Source: Escherichia coli (GTDB lineage: Bacteria > Pseudomonadota > Gammaproteobacteria > Enterobacterales > Enterobacteriaceae). From it: 64,000 nucleotides of DNA. Where the stretch lies: NCBI RefSeq assembly GCF_003018255.1, contig NZ_CP027440.1. One strand, written 5' to 3'. This document shows positions 131 through 35,131 of the stretch, in pieces. Each line of letters opens with the position of its first letter. Within the stretch, counting starts at the first letter, position 1. Made by a program: the position numbers and the translations under genes. The notes beneath the pieces are model-generated. The model saw only the letters and a list, made by a program, of their open reading frames with translations, did no database searches and was not told the origin of the DNA.

Positions 131-136
131 CTCGAA

Positions 137-421: not shown

Positions 422-505
422 TTCGCCTGAAATAATGCAGCGGGTTAATTTCCGCGAATTATGCAGCCTTCATTCAGGTATTGTGTTGCCGGGCGTGCTG
501 CCGTT

Positions 506-1321
506 TTATTGGTTAAATGGCGCTTCGTGTTTAAGCACTTTATCGATCACATCCAGTACGCCTTCACGGTTATTGGAGCCTGCCCGGTATTTTGCCGCTG
601 CGACGACCGCGCTGCCGGCATTTTCCATTGCAAAACTAAAGCCTGCCTGACGCAGCATCTCAATATCGTTACCGCCATCGCCAAAGACCACCACTTCGCT
701 GTCGTCTATTCCCCATAATTTCTGCAGTTGGCGAAGGCCATTGGCTTTATGTACGCCGGGGATAATCAGATCGATGCTGCCGTTGCCGGTGTGGACCGGC
801 ACCATAATATCGCCGATGGCCTCATGTAATGCTTTTTGTACTTGTGGAATCAGTTCATCGGAAAGATTCAGACCAAACTTAAAGAAGATATCTTCTAAGT
901 TGTCAAAGTTATCGACGTATTCCAGACGGTGATAATACATTTCCGCCACCGTTTTCATGGCATCGTCATATTTTTTGAGTGTATAGGCGCTATTTTTTCC
1001 GCAGGCAATAATTTCCACTTCCGGGCGCGTCAGCAAATGTTCCACGACAGTAGAAAACGCATCCTTCGACAGCTCGCCATTAAAAACATCTTTGCCTTCG
1101 CTCACTACCCAGCCGCCGTTTTCAGCCACAAAGGCTATTTCATTAGCAATTTCCGGAAAGAAAGAGATCAACTGATAATATTGATTCCCGCTGGCGACCA
1201 CAAAGCGAATGCCTTGTGCTTTCATTTGCTGATACTGAGCCATAAACCGCTCACGGTTATAGGTTTTTTGATCGCTTAAGAAAGTACCATCCATGTCTAC
1301 CGCAATTAATTTAATGCTCAT
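506..1321 (-). CDS. ybjI: HAD-superfamily sugar/FMN phosphatase YbjI (271 aa)
   Basis: ORF 506..1324; N-terminal DxD motif (IAVDMDGTFL) typical of HAD phosphatases; start taken at ATG 1321..1319 (the track's first codon is TTG). Confidence 0.9.
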   Translation of the reverse strand: MSIKLIAVDMDGTFLSDQKTYNRERFMAQYQQMKAQGIRFVVASGNQYYQLISFFPEIANEIAFVAENGGWVVSEGKDVFNGELSKDAFSTVVEHLLTRPEVEIIACGKNSAYTLKKYDDAMKTVAEMYYHRLEYVDNFDNLEDIFFKFGLNLSDELIPQVQKALHEAIGDIMVPVHTGNGSIDLIIPGVHKANGLRQLQKLWGIDDSEVVVFGDGGNDIEMLRQAGFSFAMENAGSAVVAAAKYRAGSNNREGVLDVIDKVLKHEAPFNQ

Positions 1322-2529
1322 CAACTATTCTCCATCGCCGTCTGCGTTTTGGTATCGGGTTTGGCGACGGCTTTCGCGACAATAGCCGCGAGAATAACCA
1401 GCGCCAGTACAACCAGCATTGCACTACGTAATCCATAATGTTCGCCGAGATAGCCCAGCAGTGGCGGCCCGACGAGGAAAGCCAGATAACCGGTCGTAGC
1501 TACCACGCTGACGCGGGTTGGTGCATCGGGGCCGGTATCGCTGGCGGCAGAAATGGTCAGCGGGAAGCCCAACGAGGCACCCAGTCCCCAAAGTACAACA
1601 GACACCCCAGCAACCCAGGCGCTATCGACAAAAATAATCAGCCCAATACCCAACGCCCCCATTAGTGCACTGGCCCGAACCACGGCAACGCGACTGTAAC
1701 GGTCAATGAACCAACCGCCGGTAAAGCGTCCAACGGTCATCCCCAGGGTAAAACCGGCATAAATCAGCGAGCCGGAAGTAGGGCTAAAACCGTGACCGTC
1801 AACCATTAATAAGGGTAACCAGTCGTTGGCAGAACCTTCGGCAAAGGCCATCGCCAGCACCACAACACCAATCAGCAGCAACTGGATATCGCGATAAAAA
1901 GGTACGCCTTTTTCACCATGCTGGGTGCCATCGGCAGCATTTTTGCCCGTACCATCAGGGATTGCCTGAATGGCGATATAAATAGGCGCGATGCCTACCA
2001 GCGCCGCCAATAAAATGTGCACCGTTGCCGGAACGCCAAAGGCCGTTAGTGCCATCCCGACACCAGCGCCTGCCAGCGTGCCCAGGCTATAAAAACCGTG
2101 CATCATCGGCAAAACCGTCTTATTCATTTCTCGCTCAACGGCAGCACCTTCAACGTTTATCGCCACTTCCGCAGAACCAAAACTTGCCCCAAAGACGCCG
2201 AGACCAACCGCGAAGAGCAGGGGCGATGTCAGCCAGAGTGCCAGACTTAGTATCATCATCCCGATCAATGCGCAGGACATCGTGACCAGGATGACATTAC
2301 GCGTCCCAAAGCGTTTCACTAACCACGCCGAGCAGAGAATACCGCTCATTGAACCGATCGACAGACCAAAGAGGACTCCGCCCATTTCAGCGATCGAAAC
2401 AGAAAGAATATCGCGGATAGCAGGCGTACGGGTTGCCCAGGACGCCATTAACAGGCCTGGCAAAAAGAAGAACATAAACAGCGCCCAGGTTCGGCGTTTC
2501 AATGCATTACGTGAAGAATTTACGGTCAT
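1321..2529 (-). CDS. ybjJ: MFS-family inner membrane transporter YbjJ (402 aa)
   Basis: ORF 1321..2529, highly hydrophobic multi-span translation; stop overlaps ybjI start by 1 nt. Confidence 0.85.
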
Positions 2530-2612
2530 AGATCACGTCAAAATAAGAAGAGGGAAGACAACATTAGCAAGGTTGTGTACATTTGTACACAATTGCAGAG
2601 AGAGGAAATGAC

Positions 2613-3149
2613 ATGCGTCGCGCTAACGATCCGCAACGGCGAGAAAAAATTATCCAGGCCACGCTGGAGGCGGTGAAACTTTATGGAATACATGCTGTTA
2701 CGCACCGCAAAATTGCTACCCTTGCCGGGGTACCGTTGGGGTCGATGACCTACTATTTTTCAGGAATTGATGAGTTGTTGCTGGAGGCGTTCAGCAGTTT
2801 TACTGAGATCATGTCCCGGCAATATCAGGCATTTTTTAGCGATGTTAGTGATGCTCCGGGCGCATGCCAGGCTATCACCGATATGATTTACAGCTCACAG
2901 GTTGCAACGCCGGATAACATGGAGCTGATGTACCAGCTCTACGCGCTGGCTAGCCGAAAACCGCTATTAAAAACGGTAATGCAAAACTGGATGCAGCGCA
3001 GTCAGCAAACGCTCGAACAATGGTTTGAACCCGGAACCGCCCGCGCGCTTGATGCGTTTATTGAGGGGATGACGCTGCATTTTGTCACCGACCGTAAGCC
3101 GCTATCGCGCGAGGAGATTTTGAGGATGGTTGAGAGGGTTGCAGGGTAG
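2613..3149 (+). CDS. rcdA: TetR-family transcriptional regulator RcdA (YbjK), 178 aa
   Basis: ORF 2583..3149; start trimmed to ATG 2613 preceded by AGAGAGGAAATGAC Shine-Dalgarno; N-terminal HTH region. Confidence 0.85.
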
Positions 3150-3168
3150 TAGATAAATTTTAGACAAC

Positions 3169-3247
3169 AAAAAACCCACCAACCTTGAACCGAAATGGCG
3201 GGGTTGATGGGCTCCACAAAATGGGGACATCAAAGAAAAGCAGTGGC
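3169..3247 (-). ncRNA. rybB: RybB small regulatory RNA (sigma-E dependent, Hfq-binding)
   Basis: Minus-strand sequence GCCACTGCTTTTCTTTGATGTCCCCATTTTGTGGAGCCCATCAACCCCGCCATTTCGGTTCAAGGTTGGTGGGTTTTTT matches the RybB sequence as I remember it, including 3' terminator hairpin and U-run; lies in the rcdA-ybjL spacer as in K-12. Confidence 0.85.
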
Positions 3248-3249
3248 AC

Positions 3250-3290
3250 TAATTAAGACTGATGCCCTGCGGAAAAGTTCTGCGGTTGTG
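3250..3290 (-). promoter_or_regulatory. Putative sigma-E promoter of rybB (-35 GAACTT, -10 TCTTA-like)
   Basis: Minus strand immediately upstream of rybB 5' end reads cagAACTTttccgcagggcatcaGTCTTAattagt, consistent with sigma-E consensus GGAACTT / TCTGA. Confidence 0.55.
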
Positions 3291-3323
3291 CAAAAAAATT
3301 TCATTTTCAGGGCAACTTCAGTT

Positions 3324-5009
3324 TTATCCTAATCCTGGCCATACCATGACGATGATTGTCCCTGCCAGCGTCAGCAGGACGTTGGCGATTGCGTAAGTGC
3401 CCGCATAGCCCAGTGCCGGGATATTACTGCGAGCTGTATCACTGATGATCTCCATTGCCGGCGCGCAGGTGCGTGCGCCCATCATTGCGCCGAACAACAG
3501 TGCGCGGTTCATTCGCAATACATAAGCACCGAACAAGAAGCAGATAACCACTGGCACCAGACTGACAATCAATCCGGCAATCAACATCTGACCGCCAATC
3601 GCGCCCAGGCCGTTATTAATACCGCTACCAGCGCTCAGACCAACGCCTGCCATAAACACCATCAAGCCGAACTCCTTCACCATGCTTAATGCACCCTGCG
3701 GAATGTAACCGAAGGTCGGGTGGTTAGCACGCATAAAGCCCAGCATAATTCCGGCGAATAACAACCCGGCAGCGTTCCCCATACCGAAACTGAATGTGCT
3801 GAACTGGAAGGTGATCATCCCGATCATCAGCCCAATAACAAAGAAGGCGCAGAATGCCAGCAAGTCAGTGACCTGGCTGTGAATCGAGATAAAGCCGATG
3901 CGATCGGCGATGGTTTTTACCCGGCGGGCATCGCCGCTGACTTGTAAAACGTCACCTTTGTTAAGCACGACGTTGTCATCAATCGGCATCTCAATCTGGC
4001 TACGTATGACGCGGTTAAGGAAGCAACCGTGATCGGTCAACTTCAGTTGTGCCAGGCGTTTGCCAACAGCGTTATGGTTTTTAACGACCACTTCTTCAGT
4101 GACGATACGCATGTCGAGAAGGTCACGATCGAAAACTTCTTTGCCATTACGGAAACTGGGATCGAGTCGGGCGTGGGCGTCAGGATAGCCTACCAACGCT
4201 ATTTCATCGCCCATTTGTAGTACGGCATCACCGTCTGGATTTGCCAGAATCCCGTTACGCCGAATACGTTCAATGTAACAGCCAGTTTGTCGATAAATAC
4301 CCAGTTCACGCAGATTTTTGCCGTCGGTCCAGGCTACCAGCTCCGGGCCGACGCGGTAGGCGCGGATCACCGGCAAATAAACCTTACGGTTGGCATCTGT
4401 GTCCAGGCCACGTTCGCGGGCGATTTGCTGGGCGCTGGTCTGTAAGTCCTGATGCTGCAATTTCGGCAAGTAACGCGCACCAACAATCAAACTCACCAGG
4501 CCGATTAAATAGGTTAAGGCATACCCGAGGCTCAGATTATCCAGTGCCAATGAGAGCTGCCTGCTTTCCATGCCGGAATGACGCAGTGTATCGCCAGCAC
4601 CGACCAGAACCGGTGTTGACGTCATAGAGCCTGCTAACATACCGGCCGTCAGGCCAATATCCCAGCCAAACAGCTTACCTAACCCTAAGGCGATGACCAG
4701 CGCACTGCCAACCATCACCAGTGCTAACATTAGGTAATTTTTCCCATCGCGAAAAAAAATGGAAAAAAAGTTCGGTCCGGCTTCGACCCCGACGCAGAAA
4801 ATAAACAGCATAAAGCCAAGATTAAGCGCGTCGGTGTTAATGCTGAAATGTTGTTGGCCTAATAACAGCGATACGACTAAAACGCCAATGGAATTACCCA
4901 GTTGGATCGAACCAAGTCGTAATTTCCCGAGACATAGCCCAAGCGCGAGGACCACAAATAATAACAGAATGTAATTCCCATTTAACAATTCGGCGACGTT
5001 TATATTCAC
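3324..5009 (-). CDS. ybjL: Putative AAE-family transporter YbjL with two central TrkA-C/RCK_C-like domains (561 aa)
   Basis: ORF 3324..5009 (561 aa); hydrophobic N- and C-terminal halves flanking a soluble central region. Confidence 0.85.
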
Positions 5010-5278
5010 GGAGGCTAACTTCTTGTTTACTAGTAAGCTGTTGAAAGAAATGGTAATTTACGATAATGTTTTTTACCAGAATTCAGGGCGCAGATTCATT
5101 CAGCGCACCTAAACGATAGTAAAGTAACAATATATTTTACTAGTGTAATCACATTAGGTATCAACGGCTATATGAATTGCGTTGGCCTATATTAGCATGG
5201 AATGCGAAGCGGCTTTATCTTACTGAACGCCACACTGGCGAAAAATGTGTTCGATAGACGCAGTGTCAGGAGGAACGA

Positions 5279-5656
5279 GTGAAACATAAACAACGTTGGG
5301 CGGGGGCAATCTGCTGTTTTGTCCTCTTCATTGTGGTGTGTCTTTTTCTGGCGACACACATGAAAGGCGCTTTTCGGGCTGCCGGGCATCCTGAAATCGG
5401 TTTGCTATTTTTCATTCTTCCTGGTGCAGTTGCCAGCTTCTTTTCACATCGTAGAGAAGTCCTGAAACCTCTGTTTGGCGCAATGCTGGCGGCACCCTGT
5501 TCGATGCTCATTATGCGGCTGTTTTTTTCACCGACGCGCTCATTCTGGCAAGAGCTGGCATGGTTATTAAGTGCGGTGTTCTGGTGTGCGCTGGGGGCAT
5601 TGTGTTTCTTATTTATCAGTAGTTTGTTTAAACCACAGCACAGAAAAAATCAATAA
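5279..5656 (+). CDS. ybjM: Inner membrane protein YbjM (125 aa), GTG start
   Basis: ORF 5279..5656; GGAGGAACGA Shine-Dalgarno upstream of GTG; hydrophobic translation. Confidence 0.75.
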   Translation: MKHKQRWAGAICCFVLFIVVCLFLATHMKGAFRAAGHPEIGLLFFILPGAVASFFSHRREVLKPLFGAMLAAPCSMLIMRLFFSPTRSFWQELAWLLSAVFWCALGALCFLFISSLFKPQHRKNQ

Positions 5657-5685
5657 AGCCCTCAACGCGAGGGCTTGTCAGACGA

Positions 5686-5943
5686 TCAGGCGTCCAGATT
5701 CTCTTTCACCCATGCAGCAAAATCGGTATAGCCGCCGATATGTTGCTGATCGACAAAAATCTGCGGCACGGTTTCTACGGGTTTTCCTGCCTTTTGTTGT
5801 AGATCTTCTTTAGTGATCCCTTCCGCACGAATATCTACATACTGATACTGGAAATCATCGCGTTCATTGCTCAATTTCTCAGCCAGATCTTTTGCACGCA
5901 CACAGTAAGGGCAACCCGGACGACCAAAAATAACGGTTTGCAT
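5686..5943 (-). CDS. grxA: Glutaredoxin 1 (85 aa)
   Basis: ORF 5686..5958 trimmed to MQTVIFGRPGCPYC...; CPYC active site visible. Confidence 0.9.
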   Translation of the reverse strand: MQTVIFGRPGCPYCVRAKDLAEKLSNERDDFQYQYVDIRAEGITKEDLQQKAGKPVETVPQIFVDQQHIGGYTDFAAWVKENLDA

Positions 5944-6102
5944 TATTTCTCTCCTCATAGATTTATACCTGTAATGATCACGCTAAAATGTATTCGCTGA
6001 AAGTAGGTTTAACCTGTTGCATTAATTGCTAAAAGCTATAACTGTTAAACACAATACAGTGAAAAGTTTTAGACTGAAGGCTCACTTTGCAGAGGGAAGC
6101 GT

Positions 6103-6390
6103 ATGCGCGCGATCGGTAAATTGCCTAAAAGCGTGTTGATACTGGAATTTATCGGAATGATGTTGCTGGCGGTGGCGCTGCTGTCGGTAAGCGGCTCCCT
6201 GTCGCTGCCTGAGCCATTTTCTCGGCCAGAAGTGCAGATTCTGATGATTTTTCTCGGTGTTTTGCTCATGCTTCCCGCTGCGGTGGTGGTTATTCTTCAG
6301 GTGGCAAAACGTCTTGCCCCACAGCTGATGAACCGTCCACCGCAATATTCACGTTCAGAAAGAGAAAAAGATAATGACGCCAACCATTGA
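6103..6390 (+). CDS. ybjC: Small membrane protein YbjC (95 aa), first gene of ybjC-nfsA-rimK-ybjN cluster
   Basis: ORF 6103..6390; two hydrophobic segments; 17-nt overlap with nfsA start. Confidence 0.7.
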   Translation: MRAIGKLPKSVLILEFIGMMLLAVALLSVSGSLSLPEPFSRPEVQILMIFLGVLLMLPAAVVVILQVAKRLAPQLMNRPPQYSRSEREKDNDANH

Positions 6391-7096
6391 ACTTATTTGT
6401 GGCCATCGCTCCATTCGCCATTTCACTGATGAACCCATTTCCGAAGCGCAGCGTGAGGCGATTATTAACAGCGCCCGTGCGACGTCCAGTTCCAGTTTTT
6501 TGCAGTGCAGTAGCATTATTCGCATTACCGACAAAGCGTTACGTGATGAACTGGTGACGCTGACCGGCGGGCAAAAACACGTAGCGCAAGCGGCGGAGTT
6601 CTGGGTGTTCTGTGCCGACTTTAACCGCCATTTACAGATCTGTCCGGATGCACAACTTGGCCTGGCGGAACAACTGTTGCTCGGTGTCGTTGATACGGCA
6701 ATGATGGCGCAGAATGCATTAACCGCAGCGGAATCGCTGGGATTGGGCGGGGTATATATCGGCGGCCTGCGCAATAATATTGAAGCGGTGACGGAGCTGC
6801 TGAAATTACCGCAGCATGTTCTGCCGCTGTTTGGGCTGTGCCTTGGCTGGCCTGCGGATAATCCGGATCTTAAGCCGCGTTTACCGGCCTCCATTTTGGT
6901 GCATGAAAACAACTATCAACCGCTGGATAAAGACGCACTGGCGCAGTATGACGAACAACTGGCGGAATATTACCTCACCCGTGGCAGCAATAATCGCCGG
7001 GATACCTGGAGCGATCATATCCGCCGAACAATCATTAAAGAAAGCCGCCCATTTATACTGGATTATTTGCACAAACAGGGTTGGGCGACGCGCTAA
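6374..7096 (+). CDS. nfsA: Oxygen-insensitive NADPH nitroreductase NfsA (240 aa)
   Basis: ORF 6374..7096; translation MTPTIELICGHRSIRHFTDEPISEAQREAII recognised as NfsA. Confidence 0.9.
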   Translation: MTPTIELICGHRSIRHFTDEPISEAQREAIINSARATSSSSFLQCSSIIRITDKALRDELVTLTGGQKHVAQAAEFWVFCADFNRHLQICPDAQLGLAEQLLLGVVDTAMMAQNALTAAESLGLGGVYIGGLRNNIEAVTELLKLPQHVLPLFGLCLGWPADNPDLKPRLPASILVHENNYQPLDKDALAQYDEQLAEYYLTRGSNNRRDTWSDHIRRTIIKESRPFILDYLHKQGWATR

Positions 7097-7156
7097 AACC
7101 GCCACGCCGATGTATGATACGCGGGCTTTTGACCAGGTCTGACAGAGAGGTGCAGG

Positions 7157-8059
7157 GTGAAAATTGCCATATTGTCCCGGGATGGAACGCTCTATTCGTG
7201 TAAGCGGCTGCGTGAAGCCGCTATACAGCGCGGTCACCTGGTTGAAATTCTTGATCCGCTTTCTTGCTACATGAACATAAATCCTGCGGCGTCTTCTATT
7301 CACTACAAAGGCCGCAAGTTACCCCATTTTGATGCTGTGATCCCGCGTATTGGTACCGCCATTACCTTTTATGGGACGGCGGCACTGCGCCAGTTCGAGA
7401 TGCTGGGGAGCTATCCGCTCAATGAGTCGGTCGCCATTGCCCGGGCGCGTGACAAATTGCGTTCCATGCAACTGCTGGCGCGTCAGGGCATCGACCTGCC
7501 TGTCACGGGCATTGCGCATTCGCCGGATGATACCAGCGATTTAATCGACATGGTCGGTGGTGCGCCGCTGGTGGTCAAGCTGGTTGAAGGCACGCAGGGA
7601 ATTGGTGTCGTGCTGGCGGAGACGCGCCAGGCGGCGGAAAGCGTGATTGACGCTTTCCGCGGTCTGAACGCGCATATTCTGGTGCAGGAATATATCAAAG
7701 AGGCGCAAGGGTGCGATATCCGCTGTCTGGTTGTTGGCGATGAAGTGGTCGCTGCGATTGAACGGCGGGCGAAAGAGGGCGATTTTCGTTCCAATTTGCA
7801 TCGTGGCGGCGCGGCAAGCGTCGCCAGTATCACACCACAGGAGCGTGAAATCGCGATAAAAGCCGCGCGAACGATGGCGCTGGACGTTGCTGGTGTGGAT
7901 ATTCTGCGTGCTAATCGCGGGCCATTGGTGATGGAGGTGAATGCGTCGCCGGGGCTGGAAGGAATAGAAAAAACCACCGGTATCGACATCGCGGGTAAAA
8001 TGATCCGCTGGATCGAACGCCACGCTACGACGGAATATTGCCTGAAAACGGGTGGTTAG
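7157..8059 (+). CDS. rimK: Ribosomal protein S6 glutamate ligase RimK (ATP-grasp), 300 aa, GTG start
   Basis: ORF 7157..8059; ATP-grasp fold translation; conserved position after nfsA. Confidence 0.9.
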
Positions 8060-8146
8060 TCGCAATCACATTACTGATCATGGTTTTGCCTGCGCTTTTT
8101 GCGTAAGCTGTGCCGGTCTTTTTATCGAAAGAGGTTGTACAAAATT

Positions 8147-8623
8147 ATGACATCGCTGGTCGTTCCTGGTCTGGATACGCTGCGTCAATGGCTCGATGAC
8201 CTGGGGATGAGTTTTTTTGAATGTGATAACTGTCAGGCTCTGCATCTGCCCCATATGCAGAATTTCGACGGTGTCTTTGATGCCAAAATCGATCTGATCG
8301 ATAACACGATCCTGTTTTCTGCCATGGCGGAAGTCCGACCTTCAGCCGTATTGCCGCTGGCGGCGGATTTATCTGCCATCAATGCCAGTTCGCTGACCGT
8401 GAAAGCATTTCTTGATATGCAGGATGATAATCTGCCAAAGCTGGTGGTTTGCCAGTCTTTATCCGTTATGCAGGGCGTAACCTATGAGCAGTTTGCATGG
8501 TTCGTGCGTCAGAGCGAAGAGCAGATTTCGATGGTCATTCTTGAAGCTAATGCCCATCAACTGCTGTTACCGACTGACGATGAAGGGCAAAACAACGTTA
8601 CCGAAAACTATTTCCTCCACTGA
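8147..8623 (+). CDS. ybjN: YbjN (158 aa), putative sensory transduction regulator-like protein
   Basis: ORF 8099..8623 trimmed to ATG 8147 (MTSLVVPGLDTL...). Confidence 0.8.
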   Translation: MTSLVVPGLDTLRQWLDDLGMSFFECDNCQALHLPHMQNFDGVFDAKIDLIDNTILFSAMAEVRPSAVLPLAADLSAINASSLTVKAFLDMQDDNLPKLVVCQSLSVMQGVTYEQFAWFVRQSEEQISMVILEANAHQLLLPTDDEGQNNVTENYFLH

Positions 8624-8898
8624 TAACTCCTTTCGAGTACGCAGTCGCTGCCGCAGTGACTGCGTGCTGCAAAATTATCTGCTATTCTTAACCTTTTCTT
8701 AAAGATTATTTCACTTCTCTTGTGCCGATTTGGCTTTATCACATAGAGCAAATACGCATAAAAATTTGTTAAATACCGTTTTTTAATCCGAGCTATAGTC
8801 TCAAACCCTGGCTAAAGTTATTCTTGCGATGCTTTTATATAGCGAGCAGTGCTGGCCGGGAGAGAGTTCTCTTTTCTTACACCGCGCCGATAAAAAAT

Positions 8899-8915
8899 AT
8901 GCACGTTTATTGCAT
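8899..8915 (+). promoter_or_regulatory. Candidate sigma-54 (-24/-12) promoter element upstream of potF: TGCACGTTTATTGCA
   Basis: Near match to TGGCAC-N5-TTGCA consensus about 60 nt upstream of potF ATG; potFGHI is recalled as nitrogen (NtrC) regulated. Confidence 0.4.
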
Positions 8916-8973
8916 ATCTTTCAGTGTGACAACTTTTGTTCGTTTGTTAACGAACTTTCAGAAGGAAAGAGAT

Positions 8974-10086
8974 ATGACCGCCTTAAATAAAAAATGGCTA
9001 TCGGGTCTGGTTACGGGTGCTCTGATGGCCGTCTCTGTCGGCACGCTCGCGGCTGAACAAAAAACACTTCACATTTATAACTGGTCTGATTATATCGCCC
9101 CGGACACGGTGGCCAATTTTGAAAAAGAAACCGGTATTAAAGTCGTCTACGATGTTTTCGACTCTAACGAAGTACTGGAAGGCAAATTAATGGCGGGTAG
9201 CACCGGCTTTGACCTGGTGGTGCCGTCAGCAAGCTTTCTTGAACGCCAGTTGACTGCGGGAGTTTTCCAGCCGCTGGACAAAAGCAAATTGCCGGAGTGG
9301 AAGAATCTCGATCCGGAGCTGCTGAAGTTAGTTGCCAAACACGATCCCGACAATAAATTTGCTATGCCCTATATGTGGGCGACGACCGGGATTGGCTATA
9401 ACGTTGATAAAGTTAAAGCGGTGCTGGGCGAAAACGCGCCCGTCGATAGCTGGGACTTGATCCTCAAGCCTGAAAATCTGGAAAAACTGAAAAGCTGCGG
9501 CGTCTCTTTCCTTGATGCACCGGAAGAAGTGTTTGCTACCGTGCTGAATTATCTCGGTAAAGATCCCAACAGCACTAAAGCAGATGATTACACCGGACCG
9601 GCAACCGATCTGCTGTTAAAGCTGCGCCCGAACATTCGTTATTTCCATTCATCTCAATACATTAACGACCTGGCAAACGGCGATATCTGCGTCGCTATTG
9701 GCTGGGCGGGCGATGTCTGGCAGGCGTCAAACCGCGCGAAGGAAGCGAAGAATGGCGTTAATGTCTCGTTCTCGATTCCGAAAGAAGGGGCGATGGCGTT
9801 CTTTGATGTCTTCGCCATGCCTGCGGATGCCAAAAATAAAGACGAAGCCTATCAGTTCCTGAATTACCTGCTGCGCCCGGATGTGGTGGCGCATATTTCC
9901 GACCATGTGTTCTATGCTAACGCCAATAAAGCAGCTACGCCGCTGGTGAGTGCGGAAGTCCGTGATAACCCGGGTATTTACCCGCCTGCGGATGTTCGTG
10001 CGAAGCTGTTCACTCTGAAAGTACAGGATCCGAAAATCGACCGTGTGCGCACCCGCGCGTGGACCAAAGTGAAGAGCGGAAAATAA
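8974..10086 (+). CDS. potF: Putrescine ABC transporter periplasmic binding protein PotF (370 aa)
   Basis: ORF 8824..10086 trimmed to ATG 8974 after GGAAAGAGAT SD; signal peptide MTALNKKWLSGLVTGALMAVSVGTLA. Confidence 0.9.
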   Translation: MTALNKKWLSGLVTGALMAVSVGTLAAEQKTLHIYNWSDYIAPDTVANFEKETGIKVVYDVFDSNEVLEGKLMAGSTGFDLVVPSASFLERQLTAGVFQPLDKSKLPEWKNLDPELLKLVAKHDPDNKFAMPYMWATTGIGYNVDKVKAVLGENAPVDSWDLILKPENLEKLKSCGVSFLDAPEEVFATVLNYLGKDPNSTKADDYTGPATDLLLKLRPNIRYFHSSQYINDLANGDICVAIGWAGDVWQASNRAKEAKNGVNVSFSIPKEGAMAFFDVFAMPADAKNKDEAYQFLNYLLRPDVVAHISDHVFYANANKAATPLVSAEVRDNPGIYPPADVRAKLFTLKVQDPKIDRVRTRAWTKVKSGK

Positions 10087-10180
10087 TCCGCAGTCGTAGA
10101 TGCCGGACGGGCGCACCACGCCCGCCGGCAATTCGCACCATTATGGTGCGCTTGCACACATTCAATGCCGGAGAGCAGCC

Positions 10181-11314
10181 GTGAATGACGCTATCCCTCG
10201 CCCGCAGGCGAAAACCCGTAAGGTGCTGACGCCGCTATTAGAAATCCGTAATCTGACTAAATCTTACGATGGTCAGCATGCGGTCGATGATGTCAGCCTG
10301 ACCATCTATAAAGGCGAAATCTTCGCGCTGCTGGGCGCATCCGGCTGTGGCAAGTCCACGCTGCTGCGTATGCTGGCAGGTTTCGAACAACCTTCTGCCG
10401 GACAGATAATGCTTGATGGCGTCGATTTGTCACAGGTTCCGCCTTACCTGCGCCCCATAAATATGATGTTTCAGTCTTACGCGCTGTTTCCGCATATGAC
10501 CGTGGAACAGAACATCGCTTTTGGCCTGAAACAGGACAAACTACCGAAAGCGGAAATTGCCAGCCGGGTCAATGAGATGCTCGGGCTGGTGCATATGCAG
10601 GAGTTCGCCAAACGCAAACCGCATCAGCTTTCCGGCGGTCAGCGACAGCGTGTGGCACTGGCCCGAAGCCTTGCCAAGCGCCCGAAACTATTACTGCTCG
10701 ATGAGCCTATGGGCGCGCTGGATAAAAAGCTGCGTGACCGGATGCAGCTTGAAGTGGTGGATATTCTGGAGCGTGTCGGTGTGACTTGTGTGATGGTCAC
10801 CCACGATCAGGAAGAGGCGATGACCATGGCGGGGCGTATCGCCATTATGAATCGAGGGAAATTTGTCCAGATTGGCGAACCGGAAGAGATCTACGAGCAT
10901 CCGACCACTCGCTACAGCGCCGAATTTATTGGCTCGGTTAATGTCTTTGAAGGTGTACTCAAAGAGCGTCAGGAAGATGGTCTGGTGCTTTATTCGCCGG
11001 GGCTGGTGCATCCACTGAAAGTCGATGTAGATGCTTCGGTGGTCGATAATGTGCCGGTGCATGTGGCGCTGCGCCCGGAAAAAATCATGCTTTGCGAGGA
11101 ACCTCCCGCTGACGGTTTTAACTTTGCGGTAGGTGAGGTGATGCACATTGCCTATCTCGGCGATCTTTCGGTGTATCACGTTCGTCTCAAGAGCGGACAG
11201 ATGATCAGCGCTCAGCTACAAAACGCTCATCGATATCGCAAAGGGTTACCAACCTGGGGCGACGAAGTGCGTTTGTGCTGGGAAGTGGACAGCTGTGTGG
11301 TGCTGACGGTTTAA
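10181..11314 (+). CDS. potG: Putrescine ABC transporter ATPase PotG (377 aa), GTG start
   Basis: ORF 10100..11314 trimmed to GTG 10181; Walker A GASGCGKST, ABC signature LSGGQRQR. Confidence 0.9.
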   Translation: MNDAIPRPQAKTRKVLTPLLEIRNLTKSYDGQHAVDDVSLTIYKGEIFALLGASGCGKSTLLRMLAGFEQPSAGQIMLDGVDLSQVPPYLRPINMMFQSYALFPHMTVEQNIAFGLKQDKLPKAEIASRVNEMLGLVHMQEFAKRKPHQLSGGQRQRVALARSLAKRPKLLLLDEPMGALDKKLRDRMQLEVVDILERVGVTCVMVTHDQEEAMTMAGRIAIMNRGKFVQIGEPEEIYEHPTTRYSAEFIGSVNVFEGVLKERQEDGLVLYSPGLVHPLKVDVDASVVDNVPVHVALRPEKIMLCEEPPADGFNFAVGEVMHIAYLGDLSVYHVRLKSGQMISAQLQNAHRYRKGLPTWGDEVRLCWEVDSCVVLTV

Positions 11315-28912: not shown

Positions 28913-29812
28913 TTATGCAGAGAAAAAGGCGATGAGAATCGGCACTAACAGACTAAGAATAAAACCGTGAACAATCGCCGCCGGGACCATATCCAGCCCG
29001 CCTGTACGTTGAAGAACGGGCAGGGTGAAATCCATCGACGTCGCACCGCATAAGCCCAGTGCAGTAGAGCGGCTACGGCGAATCAGCCCAGGGATTAACA
29101 TAATAGCAATCAGCTCACGGGCCAGATCATTAAAAAACGCCGCGCTCCCGATTACCGGACCAAAAGATTCGGTCAATAAAATACCGGAAAGAGAATACCA
29201 GCCGAAACCGGAGGCCATTGCCAGCGCGGTATTGATGGGAAGATCAAGAATAAAGGCGTTAATTAAACCACCAATTAATGAACTGGCAACCACCACCACG
29301 GCGACAATCATTCCCCGGCGATTAAGGACAATCTGCTTTAAGGTCATGCCATTATTGCGCAACTGAATACCGACGAGGAAAAGTAGCAGAATTAAGGTGT
29401 ATTCACTGGCTTCGGTCGCGTGTTGTAAGAAAGCCAGTCCACTCAGACCAATGGCAAAACCAATCACTACTACGCCGCACAGTTTTAGCGACTCCAGCGC
29501 CATCGCAATACGCGACGGGAGTTTTTCTTGATGATGGTGGTTGCGCCATGGCAGGCCGCGCTCCAGCCACATCAGGGCGGCAATATTACACAGTAAAATA
29601 ACGGTAATACTGACGGCAGAATAATGCAGAATTGCCAACAAGTTACTGGCGAGGTTATCGAGAAACGCCAGACTGATACCCATAAAAAAGAGAATAAGGT
29701 AAACCATCCAACTTAATAGCTGATTAATAACTCTTAATGCAGCTTTTTGGCGAAGCGGAATGAGGTAACCCACAATCAGGGGAACCAGAATGATTAACAG
29801 CCCAGAAAACAT
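28913..29812 (-). CDS. lysO: L-lysine exporter LysO (YbjE), 299 aa
   Basis: ORF 28913..29857 trimmed to MFSGLLIILV; multi-span membrane protein. Confidence 0.8.
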   Translation of the reverse strand: MFSGLLIILVPLIVGYLIPLRQKAALRVINQLLSWMVYLILFFMGISLAFLDNLASNLLAILHYSAVSITVILLCNIAALMWLERGLPWRNHHHQEKLPSRIAMALESLKLCGVVVIGFAIGLSGLAFLQHATEASEYTLILLLFLVGIQLRNNGMTLKQIVLNRRGMIVAVVVVASSLIGGLINAFILDLPINTALAMASGFGWYSLSGILLTESFGPVIGSAAFFNDLARELIAIMLIPGLIRRSRSTALGLCGATSMDFTLPVLQRTGGLDMVPAAIVHGFILSLLVPILIAFFSA

Positions 29813-29993
29813 GAAAAACCAGTCCTTGCAAAGAAGATTCGAAATGCGCGATGACACACTACTGAAAGCGGAAGGACGAGTAAAGTTGCAATTAAAAGGA
29901 AATGTTATGCATCAGAGGGGGATTTTTAATTCTATATGAGTGTTTAGCATTGTTGCGCTCCTTTCATGTGCAATGCCATATAAAGCCACTGGC

Positions 29994-30040
29994 GCAGGGA
30001 GCGGCCAGTTGCCGCCGCTCCCTGCCCCCCCGGCCTTCGG
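29994..30040 (-). terminator. GC-rich hairpin pair (12-bp stem GCAGGGAGCGGC/GCCGCTCCCTGC, then CCCCG-N5-CGGGG) about 100 nt downstream of aqpZ; possible terminator or structured spacer element
   Basis: Inverted repeats read directly; no strong U-run follows on minus strand, so intrinsic-terminator assignment is tentative. Confidence 0.35.
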
Positions 30041-30132
30041 GGAACGCCTCGGCGATTTTAACGCCACCAACACCCGTGCGGTTTGTAACGTCGAAGATAA
30101 AACCACCAGGGCAGACAACATGCCAATGCTAA

Positions 30133-30828
30133 TTAATCGCGTTTTTCCAGTAGAGTCCGGTAAATCAGACCACCGATAATACCGCCGACAATTGGCACCA
30201 CCCAGAAGAACCACAGTTGTTCTAATGCCCAGCCGCCCTGGAAGATAGCAACCGCAGTACTGCGCGCCGGGTTAACGGAAGTGTTAGTCACCGGAATACT
30301 GATTAAGTGAATCAGGGTTAAGGCCAGACCAATGGCAATTGGCGCAAAACCAGCAGGAGCGAATTTGTCAGTTGCGCCGTGGATCACCAACAGGAAACCT
30401 GCACTCAATACCAGTTCAACTACCAGCGCGGAAAGCATGGAATAACCGCCTGGTGAATGCTCGCCATAACCGTTAGAAGCAAAACCGCTGGCTGCCGCGT
30501 CAAAACCCGTTTTACCACTGGCAATTAAATACAGCAGCGCCGCCGCAACAATACCGCCGACAACCTGGGCAATTACGTAGCCAACGACTTCTTTTGCCGG
30601 GAAACGTCCGCCAGCCCATAAACCAATAGTGACCGCCGGGTTAAAATGACCACCAGAAATATGACCAACAGCAAAGGCCATTGTCAGAACGGTCAGACCG
30701 AACGCCAACGCCACGCCGGCAAAACCAATGCCTAATTCCGGGAAGCCTGCGGCCAGTACGGCACTACCACAGCCGCCAAAAACAAGCCAGAAAGTACCAA
30801 AACATTCAGCTGCTAATTTTCTGAACAT
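30133..30828 (-). CDS. aqpZ: Aquaporin Z (231 aa)
   Basis: ORF 30133..30834 trimmed to [11 protein letters not shown]; two NPA motifs ([14 protein letters not shown]). Confidence 0.9.
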
Positions 30829-31253
30829 ATCCACCTCAATTAAAAATTGACCCTGTGAAAAATATGGTCGTTTTATAGGGTCGTCGTAAAAAAGTGACGA
30901 CGGAAATAATGCGCGGCTATTTTAAAAACGAAGGCAAGTCATTCACCAGATAAATAAATCCAGTAAATTTGATTTAAGGCAACAGCGGGTTGCCCCATAT
31001 AGTCATTTGTCTGATTGACAGTGTAGTGCAAGCGAAAGATTTAATCCTTTAGGCGTAATAAAAAATAATTTATCATGCTAATTATTTGATTTTGTTGTTT
31101 TTGCAGACTTATCAGCAAGAGGGAGTATAACGCGATTATTCGCTCATTTTTCAGACATTTGCCATGCTTAAATGTGATGTCATCACGTATTAGCATGGCC
31201 TTTCCCGTTATACTGCCAGCGTAAAGGATAAGTCACATATTTCTGGAGGGGAT

Positions 31254-32912
31254 ATGATTCTTGAGCGCGTTGAAATTGTGGGTTTTCGCGGTATCAACCG
31301 TTTGTCGTTGATGCTGGAACAAAACAACGTCCTGATTGGGGAGAACGCGTGGGGTAAATCCAGCTTGCTGGACGCCTTAACCCTGCTGCTATCGCCAGAA
31401 TCAGATCTCTACCATTTTGAGCGCGACGATTTCTGGTTCCCGCCGGGAGATATCAACGGGCGAGAACATCATCTGCATATTATTTTGACCTTCCGCGAAT
31501 CGCTGCCAGGCCGACATCGGGTTCGCCGCTATCGGCCGCTGGAAGCGTGCTGGACGCCATGCACCGATGGTTATCACCGTATTTTTTATCGTCTGGAAGG
31601 GGAGAGTGCGGAAGACGGCAGCGTGATGACACTGCGCAGTTTTCTCGATAAAGACGGACATCCGATTGATGTTGAGGATATTAACGATCAGGCTCGTCAT
31701 CTGGTGCGTTTAATGCCGGTGCTGCGCTTGCGTGATGCCCGTTTTATGCGCCGTATTCGTAACGGCACGGTGCCAAATGTCCCCAATGTGGAAGTCACCG
31801 CGCGCCAGCTCGATTTCCTCGCCCGTGAATTATCCTCACATCCGCAAAATCTCTCTGATGGGCAGATTCGTCAGGGACTTTCCGCAATGGTGCAACTTCT
31901 TGAGCATTATTTTTCTGAGCAGGGAGCTGGACAGGCGCGATATCGTTTAATGCGGCGGCGAGCCAGCAATGAGCAACGAAGCTGGCGCTATCTGGATATC
32001 ATCAACCGGATGATTGACCGACCTGGAGGGCGCTCGTATCGGGTTATTTTGCTCGGCCTGTTTGCTACTTTATTGCAGGCAAAAGGCACATTGCGACTGG
32101 ATAAAGACGCCCGTCCATTGTTGCTGATCGAAGATCCAGAAACCCGTTTACACCCCATTATGCTTTCAGTTGCCTGGCATCTGTTGAATCTTCTGCCCTT
32201 GCAGCGCATTGCCACCACCAACTCGGGTGAGTTACTTTCGTTAACGCCGGTAGAGCATGTTTGCCGACTGGTACGTGAGTCCTCGCGCGTTGCCGCCTGG
32301 CGTCTGGGGCCGAGTGGCTTGAGTACCGAAGATAGCCGACGCATATCCTTTCACATTCGTTTTAACCGTCCGTCATCGCTGTTTGCTCGCTGCTGGCTGC
32401 TGGTGGAAGGGGAAACGGAAACCTGGGTTATCAATGAACTGGCGCGTCAGTGCGGACATCATTTTGATGCCGAAGGAATCAAGGTCATTGAGTTTGCCCA
32501 GTCCGGGCTAAAGCCACTGGTTAAATTTGCCCGCCGAATGGGGATTGAATGGCATGTACTGGTCGATGGCGATGAAGCAGGGAAGAAATATGCCGCTACG
32601 GTACGCAGCCTGTTGAATAACGATCGGGAAGCCGAACGAGAACATTTAACGGCGTTACCGGCGCTGGATATGGAACATTTTATGTATCGCCAGGGATTTT
32701 CCGATGTGTTCCACCGCGTGGCGCAAATCCCGGAAAATATACCGATGAATCTGCGCAAAGTTATCTCGAAAGCGATCCATCGCTCTTCCAAACCCGATCT
32801 TGCCATTGAAGTGGCAATGGAGGCCGGACGTCGTGGTGTGGACTCCGTACCGACGCTGCTGAAAAAAATGTTCTCACGCGTGCTGTGGCTGGCGCGCGGT
32901 CGCGCGGATTAA
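31254..32912 (+). CDS. ybjD: OLD-family ATP-dependent endonuclease-like protein YbjD (N-terminal ABC-type ATPase, C-terminal TOPRIM), 552 aa
   Basis: ORF 31254..32912; Walker A GENAWGKSS at residues ~29-37; C-terminal acidic TOPRIM-like motifs LLVEGETE and VLVDGDEAGK. Confidence 0.85.
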   Translation: MILERVEIVGFRGINRLSLMLEQNNVLIGENAWGKSSLLDALTLLLSPESDLYHFERDDFWFPPGDINGREHHLHIILTFRESLPGRHRVRRYRPLEACWTPCTDGYHRIFYRLEGESAEDGSVMTLRSFLDKDGHPIDVEDINDQARHLVRLMPVLRLRDARFMRRIRNGTVPNVPNVEVTARQLDFLARELSSHPQNLSDGQIRQGLSAMVQLLEHYFSEQGAGQARYRLMRRRASNEQRSWRYLDIINRMIDRPGGRSYRVILLGLFATLLQAKGTLRLDKDARPLLLIEDPETRLHPIMLSVAWHLLNLLPLQRIATTNSGELLSLTPVEHVCRLVRESSRVAAWRLGPSGLSTEDSRRISFHIRFNRPSSLFARCWLLVEGETETWVINELARQCGHHFDAEGIKVIEFAQSGLKPLVKFARRMGIEWHVLVDGDEAGKKYAATVRSLLNNDREAEREHLTALPALDMEHFMYRQGFSDVFHRVAQIPENIPMNLRKVISKAIHRSSKPDLAIEVAMEAGRRGVDSVPTLLKKMFSRVLWLARGRAD

Positions 32913-33901
32913 CCGCGAAACATCGTGGCCATTTGTGGCTGAATAGCGTCGAGCATCTCATAGCGCCGACGGTATTCAGCCCGTTTTTTACTGGCGATTT
33001 CGGCAATCTCTTTTCGTGCTATCTGTGCCGGAAGGCGGTAATGGCGTTCAGCATCACATACGCCGCCAACCGACTCCCAGAACGCGTTGTAATCGGCATG
33101 GATCTTGCCTTCTTTATCACGATAACGCAGGCTGCGGTAAATATGCGTTTCATTGCTGACGGCAATAATCTGCTCTACCTGCAAACGTTGGGCAAACAGA
33201 CAGGCCGCTTCCATCACAAGGCGTTTGGGAAATAGCCCGTGGCAGGCTTTCGTCGCATTCTGGATTTCCTGATGTGGAATTTCCCATTTTGCGCCTTGCA
33301 GTCCGCCAATAAACATTGTTCTTTTCCCCTTATATTCACACAGGGTAAACGTGATCTCTGCCAGAGGAATACCTTCGCTGTTGCGGAACAGGATTGTGCT
33401 GTCACCTTCTTTATCCATTGAGATCATCATGGTCAGCTCAAGCGTGAACTGCTCGCCGTTTTTGCCTTCCAGTTTAGCCAGTTGCAGCCCGGGGGTATTC
33501 AAATATAAGCTGAATTCTTCCGCCGACATACACCCGCGGAGTAACGCATAATGGTAACGTAACGCCTCCAGCAATTGCTTACGGCTAAGATTCGCCGCAA
33601 GGTAAGGGCGATGCAGACGCACAGGCAGTCGCGGCTGGCGCGTTAACAACACATTGAGATTGGGCCAGTGGGAAAGTTCGTTCATCCACTCAACGCTTAA
33701 ACGCGGCATAATCAACGAGCGCAGCAAAAATTTCTGGCGAAAACTACGGCGATGCCAGAATTTACCCGGCCGACACTGTCCACGTGCCAGGCTAAGAAAA
33801 AGTGACAGGCTGCTGAGAGATTCAGATGGCGTAAAGGTCCGTTCAGTTAGCTGCGACATATTCATGAAATCAATGGTTATACATGTCGTCGATTTCACCA
33901 T
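32909..33901 (-). CDS. ybjX: YbjX (DUF535, VirK-like), 330 aa
   Basis: ORF 32909..33901; 4-nt convergent overlap with ybjD stop. Confidence 0.8.
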   Translation of the reverse strand: MVKSTTCITIDFMNMSQLTERTFTPSESLSSLSLFLSLARGQCRPGKFWHRRSFRQKFLLRSLIMPRLSVEWMNELSHWPNLNVLLTRQPRLPVRLHRPYLAANLSRKQLLEALRYHYALLRGCMSAEEFSLYLNTPGLQLAKLEGKNGEQFTLELTMMISMDKEGDSTILFRNSEGIPLAEITFTLCEYKGKRTMFIGGLQGAKWEIPHQEIQNATKACHGLFPKRLVMEAACLFAQRLQVEQIIAVSNETHIYRSLRYRDKEGKIHADYNAFWESVGGVCDAERHYRLPAQIARKEIAEIASKKRAEYRRRYEMLDAIQPQMATMFRG

Positions 33902-34015
33902 TGCGTATCTTAACCAAACATCAATAGTGTGATTACTAATGTAAATTTTAGGGTTTTGTTGATATTTCGTTGAAGTTAATGACCCAGATTGGCATATGGA
34001 GTATTCAGAATATTT

Positions 34016-35131
34016 ATGAAAAAGCGGAAAACCGTGAAGAAGCGTTACGTTATTGCGCTGGTGATAATCATCGTCGGGCTGATTACGTTATGGAGAATTC
34101 TTAACGCACCCGTGCCGACTTATCAGACGCTGATTGTGCGCCCCGGTGATTTACAGCAAAGCGTGCTGGCGACCGGAAAGCTGGACGCGCTGCGTAAGGT
34201 TGATGTGGGCGCGCAGGTCAGCGGTCAGTTGAAAACGCTGTCGGTGGCGATTGGCGATAAAGTAAAAAAAGACCAGCTTTTAGGGGTTATTGATCCTGAA
34301 CAGGCTGAAAACCAGATTAAGGAGGTGGAAGCAACGCTGATGGAGCTACGCGCGCAGCGGCAGCAGGCGGAAGCGGAGCTGAAACTGGCGCGGGTGACGT
34401 ATTCCCGTCAGCAACGTCTTGCACAAACGCAAGCGGTTTCACAGCAGGATCTCGATAACGCCGCGACGGAGATGGCTGTGAAACAGGCGCAAATTGGCAC
34501 CATTGACGCGCAAATCAAGCGCAATCAGGCCTCTCTCGATACGGCTAAAACCAATCTCGATTACACCCGCATCGTTGCCCCGATGGCCGGGGAAGTCACG
34601 CAAATCACCACTCTGCAAGGCCAGACGGTGATTGCCGCACAACAAGCACCGAACATTCTGACGCTGGCAGATATGAGCACCATGCTGGTAAAAGCGCAGG
34701 TTTCTGAAGCGGATGTAATCCACCTGAAGCCGGGGCAAAAAGCCTGGTTTACGGTGCTTGGCGATCCGCTGACGCGCTATGAGGGGCAAATCAAGGATGT
34801 GCTACCGACGCCGGAAAAGGTTAACGACGCTATTTTCTATTACGCCCGTTTTGAAGTCCCCAACCCCAATGGTTTGCTGCGGCTGGATATGACCGCGCAA
34901 GTGCATATTCAGCTCACCGATGTGAAAAATGTGCTGACGATCCCTCTGTCGGCATTAGGCGATCCGGTTGGCGATAATCGTTATAAAGTCAAATTGTTGC
35001 GTAATGGTGAAACACGCGAGCGTGAAGTGACGATTGGCGCACGTAACGATACCGATGTTGAGATTGTCAAAGGGCTGGAAGCGGGCGATGAAGTGGTGAT
35101 TGGTGAGGCCAAACCAGGAGCTGTACAATGA
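34016..35131 (+). CDS. macA: Macrolide efflux periplasmic adaptor (membrane fusion protein) MacA, 371 aa
   Basis: ORF 33989..35131 trimmed to [10 protein letters not shown]; N-terminal TM anchor, coiled-coil region. Confidence 0.85.

Follow-up and report, generated by a model that had tools for sequence, protein, structure and literature searches.

ybjD of Escherichia coli, a stand-alone OLD-family gene inherited as a single-copy core gene of Enterobacterales

The ybjD locus and the domains of its product

The gene ybjD is located in a stretch of 64,000 nt of Escherichia coli DNA (contig NZ_CP027440.1), which was analysed as a whole and is referred to as the window below. According to the listing of open reading frames (ORFs) of the window, ybjD is an ATG ORF at 31254..32912 on the plus strand and encodes a protein of 552 amino acids (aa) that belongs to the OLD (overcoming lysogenization defect) family. 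On the upstream side it is preceded by the divergent gene aqpZ (30133-30834, minus strand), from which it is separated by an intergenic region of 419 bp with 37% GC. On the downstream side it is followed by the convergent gene ybjX (32909-33901, minus strand), and the two genes overlap by 4 nt. The ORF coordinates thus agree with the position between aqpZ and ybjX assigned in an initial annotation of this DNA, and the ORF of 552 aa was recovered together with the motifs quoted there. The main finding of our analysis is that ybjD is a single-copy, vertically inherited core gene of Enterobacterales, which also has a fixed locus in Vibrio. That ybjD is an OLD-family gene was already known; its vertical inheritance, the domain-wise selection acting on it, a predicted C-terminal domain resembling that of Class 2 proteins and the Gabija members of its subfamily are not in the papers.

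In the RefSeq annotation of a 99.9%-identical strain, housekeeping genes are found throughout the window (ybjH, pot, art, poxB, hcr-hcp, lysO, aqpZ, ybjD, ybjX, macAB, clpSA, cydCD, ftsK, rarA, serS, dmsABC, to pflA), and neither a prophage, an insertion sequence element, an integrase nor a defence gene is annotated in these 64 kb. The view that ybjD is the only gene of the window with a defence-type organisation is in line with this, since no other window gene has a defence-type annotation. The G+C content of ybjD and its G+C content at third codon positions (GC3) are like those of the neighbouring genes.

The protein is matched over residues 1-375 by the Pfam family DUF2813 (PF11398; E 2e-160, 534.6 bits against a cutoff of 21), with the match covering the full length of the profile (positions 1-372 of 372), and over residues 376-440 by OLD-like_TOPRIM (PF20469; E 3.8e-16). 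Generic ABC/SMC-type Pfam matches (AAA_15, SMC_N) are confined to the N-terminal P-loop region. In NCBIfam, no model came up to its cutoff on YbjD, and the retron-effector models stayed far below theirs. The N-terminal ATPase contains a Walker A motif (GENAWGKSS, residues 29-37), a Walker B-like motif (LLLIEDPE, residues 289-296), a D-loop and an H-loop position, and in the C-terminal TOPRIM domain the OLD-type Glu (LLVEGETE, residues 382-389) and the DxD (VLVDGDEAGK, residues 435-444) are present.

In a plain-sequence search against solved structures, YbjD was only distantly related to GajA (E about 1e-4) and to the OLD protein of Thermus scotoductus (E 2e-3). The family profile, which was built from 65 full-length relatives with 27-91% identity to YbjD, matched the Thermus protein (PDB 6p74) with an E value of 7.5e-22 and GajA with 1e-19, and its alignment to phage P2 Old reached an hhalign probability of 98%. 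The AlphaFold (AF2) model of YbjD is confident. The top matches in a fold search with this model were GajA, the Thermus OLD and the retron-Eco8 OLD, and the predicted overall fold agrees with that of the solved OLD proteins. Thus, Pfam, the profile searches and the predicted fold all support the membership in the OLD family proposed in the initial annotation.

To YbjD we mapped those residues of P2 Old which were mutated in an earlier study (PMC7049728). According to hhalign, Walker B D299 of P2 Old corresponds to E293, a Glu as in the Thermus OLD, and D-loop H306 to H300, while H-loop H332 corresponds to N323, an Asn substitution reported to be common in Class 1 (PMC7049728). The metal A Glu and the first metal B ligand of P2 Old (E398/E402) correspond to E385/E389, and its DxD (D453/D455) to D438/D440; the domain order of the two proteins is alike. 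With the Thermus OLD, also a stand-alone Class 1 protein, YbjD has an identity of only about 21%, but both have an ABC head with a four-helix insert, a Walker B Glu and residues for metal A and metal B at equivalent positions in space, those of metal B in YbjD being assigned by analogy. In the AF2 model the four helices inside the ATPase span residues 177-195, 202-220, 241-255 and 260-277. By analogy to the Thermus OLD, which dimerises via the equivalent insert (PMC7049728), we infer that they form the dimerisation domain of YbjD. Further, their invariance and the comparison with the metal B and Lys residues of two other OLD proteins (Bp E404/T506/E508/K562, PMC6755086; Ts D381/S478/E480, PMC7049728) suggest that D472 and E474 are likely ligands of the second metal and that K513 is likely the catalytic lysine.

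Inheritance, selection and flanking elements of ybjD

Of 5426 complete E. coli genomes, 5424 have the gene annotated as 'ybjD: ATP-dependent endonuclease', in all cases with at least 95% identity and with a median copy number of one per genome. The protein encoded in the window is 98-100% identical to the annotated YbjD, and the same 3-kb stretch is also annotated 'ybjX: VirK/YbjX family protein' in these genomes. A scan with one genome per species revealed at least 494 confirmed relatives of YbjD. The identity gradient described here is based on the best 80 of these at least 494 relatives, all of which are from Enterobacterales. Over these 80 species the identity declines with phylogeny from 98% to 64%: it is 97-98% in Escherichia, about 90% in Citrobacter, about 85% in Enterobacter and Klebsiella, about 80% in Cedecea and Buttiauxella, 65-68% in Pectobacterium and Serratia, and 64% in Hafnia.

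The gene order hcr-hcp-lysO-(aqpZ)-ybjD-(ybjX)-macAB is kept across 83 ybjD loci, which were chosen for holding ybjD and thus say nothing on the number of species without it. Among the neighbours, hcp was found in 71 of the 83 loci, lysO in 69, macA in 67, aqpZ in 58 and ybjX in 57, and several of the absences correspond to contig ends. Proteus retains lysO-ybjD-macAB, and three Vibrio species have a common fixed locus of their own (terC-ushA / ybjD / ... yceI-cytb). Across Enterobacteriaceae, for which the initial annotation had pointed to conservation and synteny as informative, ybjD hence shows a fixed position and an identity following phylogeny. The pairwise distances of YbjD also correlate with the mean distances of Hcp, MacB and Hcr (Mantel r 0.944, reached by 0 of 999 permutations). 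This is the same level at which Hcp, MacB and Hcr correlate among themselves (0.91-0.96).

A tblastn search against 50,697 phage records (INPHARED) revealed no true phage copy of ybjD, and among 2.9 million IMG/VR contigs two relatives of YbjD were confirmed, which we refer to as L096 and L097. L096 (IMGVR_UViG_2534681697_000018) is the E. coli region aqpZ-ybjD-ybjX-macA at the margin of a contig predicted to be viral and thus host flank; L097 is described in the next section. Altogether, ybjD is without the hallmarks of a defence gene: it is not patchy, it is not part of an island or a mobile element, and it does not show a pattern of horizontal transfer.

Some database matches deserve a separate comment. 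The sole INPHARED match, OR845570.1 (2,060 bp), is a record carrying a host ybjD fragment, and the matches to ybjD among the 'plasmids' of PLSDB are mostly chromosomes (4-5 Mb) or chromids filed as plasmids. In L096, the aqpZ homologue beside ybjD (5006-5581) is 81.5% identical, the match extending over a shortened stretch. This divergence and the classification of the contig as viral suggest that aqpZ of this strain has undergone an insertion or a rearrangement.

The ratio of nonsynonymous to synonymous substitution rates (dN/dS, omega) was determined according to Nei and Gojobori for E. coli ybjD versus the gene of other species. Omega was 0.019 versus E. albertii, 0.032-0.035 versus two Citrobacter species, 0.046 versus Enterobacter cloacae and 0.065 versus Klebsiella oxytoca, values that are approximate because a dS above 1 is near saturation. 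The range of 0.019-0.065 lies within that of the flanking genes. In the TOPRIM core (75 codons), dN was 0 versus E. albertii and the two Citrobacter species at a dS of about 1; no amino-acid change was seen versus any of the three, while about 10 would be expected from the gene-wide dN.

The same picture emerged at the level of single residues. Invariant in the 65 full-length relatives are R362, H367, R379, W381, E385, G386, E387, E389, W391, F414, G418, D440, G443, E474, G481, K513 and P514, which cluster in the nuclease half of the protein, and D438 and D472 are each conserved in 64 of the 65. In the Walker A motif, conservation is at least 90% for G29, E30, N31 and G34, and position 35 is occupied by Lys in 58 relatives and by Arg in 6. 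The mean majority fraction is 0.72 in the TOPRIM core, 0.50-0.55 in the ATPase lobes and 0.31 in the region of the helical insert, the lowest value of the protein. We conclude that the purifying selection on ybjD equals in strength that on its housekeeping neighbours and that it acts most strongly on the nuclease site.

The features of the locus are compiled in Table 1. For the upstream region, the 200 nt located 5' of the start codon were aligned from 15 enterobacterial genera. In 13 of the 15 aligned genera, the sequence CGyTATACTGC is conserved approximately 40 nt 5' of the ybjD ATG, and the TATACT box in it is a probable promoter element of ybjD. This -10-like box is known from the alignment only, and a consensus promoter scan upstream of ybjD made no call. 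Just 5' of the box we found a near-palindrome with 19-nt arms, of which 16 of 19 positions are complementary, and a 1-nt centre. Of 5426 E. coli genomes, 5422 contain it in a single copy with at least 95% identity, and its outer arms show no conservation beyond Escherichia in the cross-genus alignment. The near-palindrome may be an operator. Compared by eye with the consensus sequences of CRP, FNR and Fur, it does not fit as a site for any of the three; its half-sites are CRP-like, yet they have a spacing of 5 instead of 6. Regulation by the SOS system was considered and rejected, since the sole match to CTG-N10-CAG is intragenic at 31383 and none is present in the promoter region. In the same intergenic region, just 5' of the aqpZ start, there is an inverted repeat, GACCCTGTGAAA / TTTTATAGGGTC, at 30849-30882.

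Table 1. Features of ybjD and its immediate flanks (positions in the window).
Feature	Position	Strand	Basis or sequence
Near-palindrome of 39 bp, overlapping the -35 region of ybjD	31161..31199	.	GCCATGCTTAAATGTGATG-T-CATCACGTATTAGCATGGC
-10-like box TATACT, probable ybjD promoter	31209..31214	+	inferred; cross-genus alignment
Shine-Dalgarno sequence GGAGG	31245..31249	+	sequence; kept in cross-genus upstream alignment
ybjD (oldB) coding sequence, 552 aa plus stop	31254..32912	+	ORF, Pfam, E. coli annotation
N-terminal ABC-type ATPase region, aa 1-375, helical insert included	31254..32378	+	DUF2813
Walker A/P-loop GENAWGKSS, aa 29-37, K35	31338..31364	+	motif position
Four-helix insert in ATPase, aa ~177-277, predicted dimerisation domain	31782..32084	+	AF2 model
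Walker B and D-loop LLLIEDPETRLHP, aa 289-301: E293, D294, E296, H300	32118..32156	+	hhalign
H-loop position N323	32220-32222	+	hhalign to P2 Old
TOPRIM core, aa 376-450: E385, D438, D440 (metal A), plus E389	32379..32603	+	PF20469, conservation
C-terminal helical domain, aa 451-552: D472, E474 (inferred metal B ligands), invariant K513	32604..32909	+	
Stop-stop overlap (TTAA) between the convergent ybjD and ybjX	32909..32912	.	ORF coordinates and sequence

Downstream of ybjD, a hairpin resembling a terminator, with a T run behind it, is located at 32968-32985 on the plus strand, 56 nt beyond the ybjD stop codon and within the 3' end of ybjX. Because of this position, the ybjD and ybjX transcripts probably overlap in antisense, and the hairpin fits a published E. 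coli list in which ybjD-ybjX is given as convergent excludon (PMC12288877). The gene ybjX itself is a fast-evolving, patchy gene within a stable core region: E. coli and Citrobacter YbjX are about 56-60% identical, compared with about 90% for every neighbour.

OLD class and relationship to Gabija

YbjD (b0876) was the seed query of the OLD survey of Schiltz et al. (2019), in which E. coli was placed in Class 1, the isolated genes (PMC6755086). By gene context YbjD is indeed Class 1. In the window and in the 83 related loci it stands alone, without a tandem UvrD/PcrA/Rep helicase, a retron or a split TOPRIM partner, and the initial annotation was right in this respect, as neither a helicase of the UvrD type nor a reverse transcriptase, a retron RNA or a partner of the AriB type was detected within +/-20 kb. 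The position 3' of ybjD, where gajB would be located, is occupied by the convergent ybjX, and no UvrD-like gene exists in the window. Likewise, no reverse transcriptase is annotated in the window, and within 29800-34200 Rfam revealed neither a structured RNA nor a retron (msr/msd) RNA at E values up to 1. Unlike in Class 4, the ATPase and the TOPRIM domain are parts of one chain of 552 aa, of which the AriA model covers only the first 51 residues. In this context, a correction is needed to the statement that AriA is the nuclease component of PARIS: AriA is the ATPase half only and the TOPRIM domain is on AriB.

The assignment to Class 1, which was also made in the initial annotation, is thus correct for the gene context; however, it does not extend to the C-terminal half of the protein. 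The one solved Class 1 protein is without a C-terminal helical domain after TOPRIM, whereas the predicted fold of YbjD has one. Judged from the modelled fold of this half and from its nearest partnered relatives, YbjD is closer to Class 2 (GajA-type). With GajA, the best fold match, it shares the combination of a DUF2813 ATPase, an OLD TOPRIM and a helical domain at the C-terminus. At the level of the sequence profile the two classes are not divided (7.5e-22 for the Thermus OLD and 1e-19 for GajA), and according to Yang et al. (2025) Class 2 OLDs are nested within Class 1 (PMC12796447). YbjD differs from GajA in that it has no adjoining gajB, lies outside any defence island, is non-mobile and shows vertical inheritance.

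The top PADLOC model for YbjD is the GajA model PDLC00094 (E 7.7e-80), and many further GajA models match. The same model matches end to end the protein from L097 (E 3.9e-228), which consists of 570 aa with DUF2813 and OLD-TOPRIM and shares 31% identity with YbjD along its full length. The gene of this protein overlaps by 4 nt a gene for a UvrD-type helicase, which matches the GajB model PDLC00114 (E 8e-266). A second GajA-GajB pair is that of P0264 in locus L098, in which the gene located downstream shares 65% identity with the L097 GajB. The L097 pair and the common best model PDLC00094 show that true Gabija (Class 2) proteins are among the members of the DUF2813 subfamily. Eight other distant members of the subfamily are without a helicase and are located in ordinary-gene surroundings (cysS/nrdAB, pyrG-eno, polA, sulP, aconitase, copCD, Ser/Thr kinase and sugar-nucleotide genes).

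When the L097 GajB was used in a tblastn search against 102 loci, which include the 83 gammaproteobacterial loci and the 8 distant subfamily members, matches were found in L097 and L098 alone and in no YbjD-type locus. In a neighbour-joining tree, which is star-like, has no support values and gives no direction of evolution, the gammaproteobacterial stand-alone forms cluster apart from the GajB-linked pair. The strong scores of YbjD with GajA models illustrate that single-gene matches should not be read as Gabija.

Two further observations concern the surroundings and the size of the relatives. The L097 pair is part of a defence island (135-11066 of IMGVR_UViG_3300021604_000070) on a predicted viral contig, where it is flanked by a HEPN_Swt1-DUF499 'HmaC' gene and an opposite-strand type IIG restriction-modification gene. 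Giant relatives of 1,100-1,900 aa (P0149, P0162, P0163, P0165, P0174, P0188 and P0205) have the DUF2813 and OLD-TOPRIM core with a large insertion in the ATPase head, which may be a coiled coil of the SMC type, and, at the C-terminus, a long extension without Pfam match. A fusion to a helicase was rejected for these proteins, since no helicase domain was detected. One of the giant genes (L085/L086, 392-4360) is followed by an unannotated opposite-strand gene of 1,020 aa and then by a DNA polymerase I gene.

Possible native role of YbjD

In a micropublication of May 2026, Atahualpa et al. reported that ybjD is expressed and proposed the name oldB (PMC13261556). Together with the classification by Schiltz et al. 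(2019), these experiments make the description of the gene as uncharacterised, which was given in the initial annotation, outdated. The ybjD knockout of the Keio collection did not differ from the parent on 68 BASEL phages, while ybjD on pBAD with 0.001% arabinose reduced the plating of Bas18 and Bas20 and made the plaques of Bas64-68 smaller. This over-expression effect was unchanged when three acidic Toprim residues were mutated or the Toprim was deleted (378-552), and it was abolished by deletion of the ATPase; with K35A, the effect was retained and the toxicity was greater (all PMC13261556). The phage-borne P2 Old is lethal in recBC cells and is nuclease-dependent. In contrast, the chromosomally encoded YbjD was non-lethal to a recBC(ts) strain, and its published phenotype is Toprim-independent (PMC13261556). 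Other papers with ybjD take the region between aqpZ and ybjD as insertion site or contain the gene in omics tables, where a mild induction of ybjD by a cathelicidin peptide is the sole lead. In the literature under DUF2813, b0876 and oldB, nothing further on function was found.

There is a tension in these data: the nuclease site is the part of the protein which is most protected by selection, yet the reported phenotype dispenses with it. Since the anti-phage effect was seen upon over-expression only and is nuclease-independent, the selected function must use the nuclease. Our preferred explanation, which we hold with moderate confidence, is that YbjD is an ATP-gated, two-metal OLD nuclease with a selected role that depends on the nuclease and is distinct from the published phenotype, most likely in surveillance or processing of chromosomal nucleic acid at a low level. 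In the mechanism we propose, an ABC head similar to those of SMC, Rad50 and RecF, with a four-helix insert, is fused to a TOPRIM nuclease and a helical domain at the C-terminus, and the protein would dimerise via the insert. ATP bound at the head (K35, E293/D294, H300, N323) would keep YbjD restrained. The greater toxicity of K35A fits ATP binding as a restraint, and ATP appears to restrain GajA as well. Upon release, the two-metal TOPRIM site (E385, D438, D440; E389, D472, E474; K513) would nick or cut nucleic acid, and interference with phages would be a secondary or conditional effect.

Several points weigh against this explanation. The ybjD gene is in the list of fully uncharacterised genes of E. 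coli, its knockout has no reported phenotype in growth or DNA metabolism, and no biochemistry of a YbjD ATPase, nuclease or substrate has been reported; the only phenotypes reported for ybjD are the anti-phage ones, which are weak and depend on over-expression (PMC13261556). In addition, the structural model is a predicted monomer, the alignments to P2 Old and to the profile stop near residue 455 and thus short of D472, E474 and K513, and the omega values suffer from the saturation mentioned above. Finally, the core status of ybjD is compatible with immunity against untested phages or plasmids.

A precedent for an OLD protein with a cellular role is Cran1 of Sulfolobales, which Yang et al. (2025) described as a vertically inherited archaeal OLD with an essential role in the cell cycle and no defence phenotype (PMC12796447). 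As with YbjD, the tree of this OLD follows the species tree with no sign of transfer, a clear defence role is missing, and over-expression is harmful (PMC12796447). In contrast to the dispensable ybjD, Cran1 is essential and cell-cycle regulated, and it belongs to another domain of life and to another OLD clade; in the searchable part of the Cran1 dataset, YbjD is not listed (PMC12796447). The core status of ybjD, its synteny and co-divergence, the omega values and the near-absence from phages make a Cran1-like native role in surveillance or processing of host nucleic acid no less likely than a dedicated role in immunity. It is tempting to speculate, although only tentatively, that the YbjD-type DUF2813 proteins are a bacterial counterpart of Cran1, a vertically inherited housekeeping branch of the OLD family in Gammaproteobacteria with host DNA or RNA as substrate of the strongly conserved TOPRIM, that the GajA proteins of the subfamily stand for recruitment of this enzyme into a mobile defence system or its escape from one, and that the anti-phage effect would be caused by an over-produced DNA-binding ABC head. 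The host role may then be in repair, in replication-associated processing or in RNA maturation.

Alternatively, YbjD could be a dedicated single-gene anti-phage OLD of Class 1 like P2 Old or the Vc OLD of Vibrio cholerae, which stays idle until a phage cue frees the nuclease, resulting in abortive infection or a block of phage replication, with its cognate phages still untested. All OLD proteins of bacteria or phages to which a function has been assigned are defence effectors, the catalytic site of YbjD is intact, true Gabija GajA proteins exist inside its own subfamily, and the effects on Bas18, Bas20 and Bas64-68 upon over-expression are compatible with such a function; Vc OLD likewise protects weakly at the native level. 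However, at its own native level ybjD made no difference for 68 phages, and the over-expression phenotype does without Toprim. Moreover, ybjD is universal in E. coli, syntenic, co-diverging, under uniformly strong purifying selection, outside islands and nearly absent from phages, whereas Vc OLD is on a mobile defence element beside DarTG (Patel and Seed 2025). The same authors, citing DefenseFinder, reported Class 1 OLDs in 0.45% of genomes; in view of the ubiquity of ybjD, this figure evidently leaves YbjD uncounted. We regard a dedicated anti-phage function as a serious alternative that is less likely than our preferred explanation, and the defence role implied in the initial annotation was its weakest part, because ybjD evolves like a housekeeping gene.

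Two other possibilities find still less support. YbjD could be an orphaned GajA, a Class 2 OLD which has lost GajB and is now a remnant or a partner of an unlinked UvrD/Rep. Its best PADLOC model and the end-to-end match of this model to the GajB-linked protein of L097, the second pair in L098, the Class 2-type helical domain predicted for its C-terminal half and the K35A toxicity, which recalls the ATP-inhibited behaviour of GajA, are consistent with such an origin. Yet the L097 GajB has no homologue in any YbjD-type locus, the GajB-linked pair is a small branch elsewhere in a tree that does not settle the direction of evolution, and the family profile is equally near to the Class 1 Thermus OLD. 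Since the strong purifying selection excludes a decaying remnant, this idea could hold as history but not as decay, and we find it improbable. The least credible proposal, to which we give almost no weight, is that ybjD and the convergent ybjX (VirK/DUF535) are a functional unit of two genes. The 3' overlap of 4 nt, the listing as convergent excludon and the adjacency in many Enterobacteriaceae speak for it, but ybjX is present in just 57 of the 83 ybjD loci and is absent from Klebsiella, Raoultella, Pectobacterium and every Vibrio locus. In addition, YbjX evolves about three times faster, its neighbour correlation is r 0.56 compared with 0.94, ybjX has no PADLOC match, and antisense transcription could at most modulate expression. 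In view of its patchy presence and fast evolution, ybjX was rejected as a partner of YbjD.

OLD nucleases are now treated as immune effectors, also by databases and defence-finding tools, and YbjD shows that a family member can belong to the fixed core genes of an entire bacterial order and evolve slowly. The combination of a conserved nuclease with a nuclease-free phenotype points to an undiscovered cellular function of this E. coli gene. YbjD is also a tractable bacterial model for the exchange of roles between immune and housekeeping nucleases.

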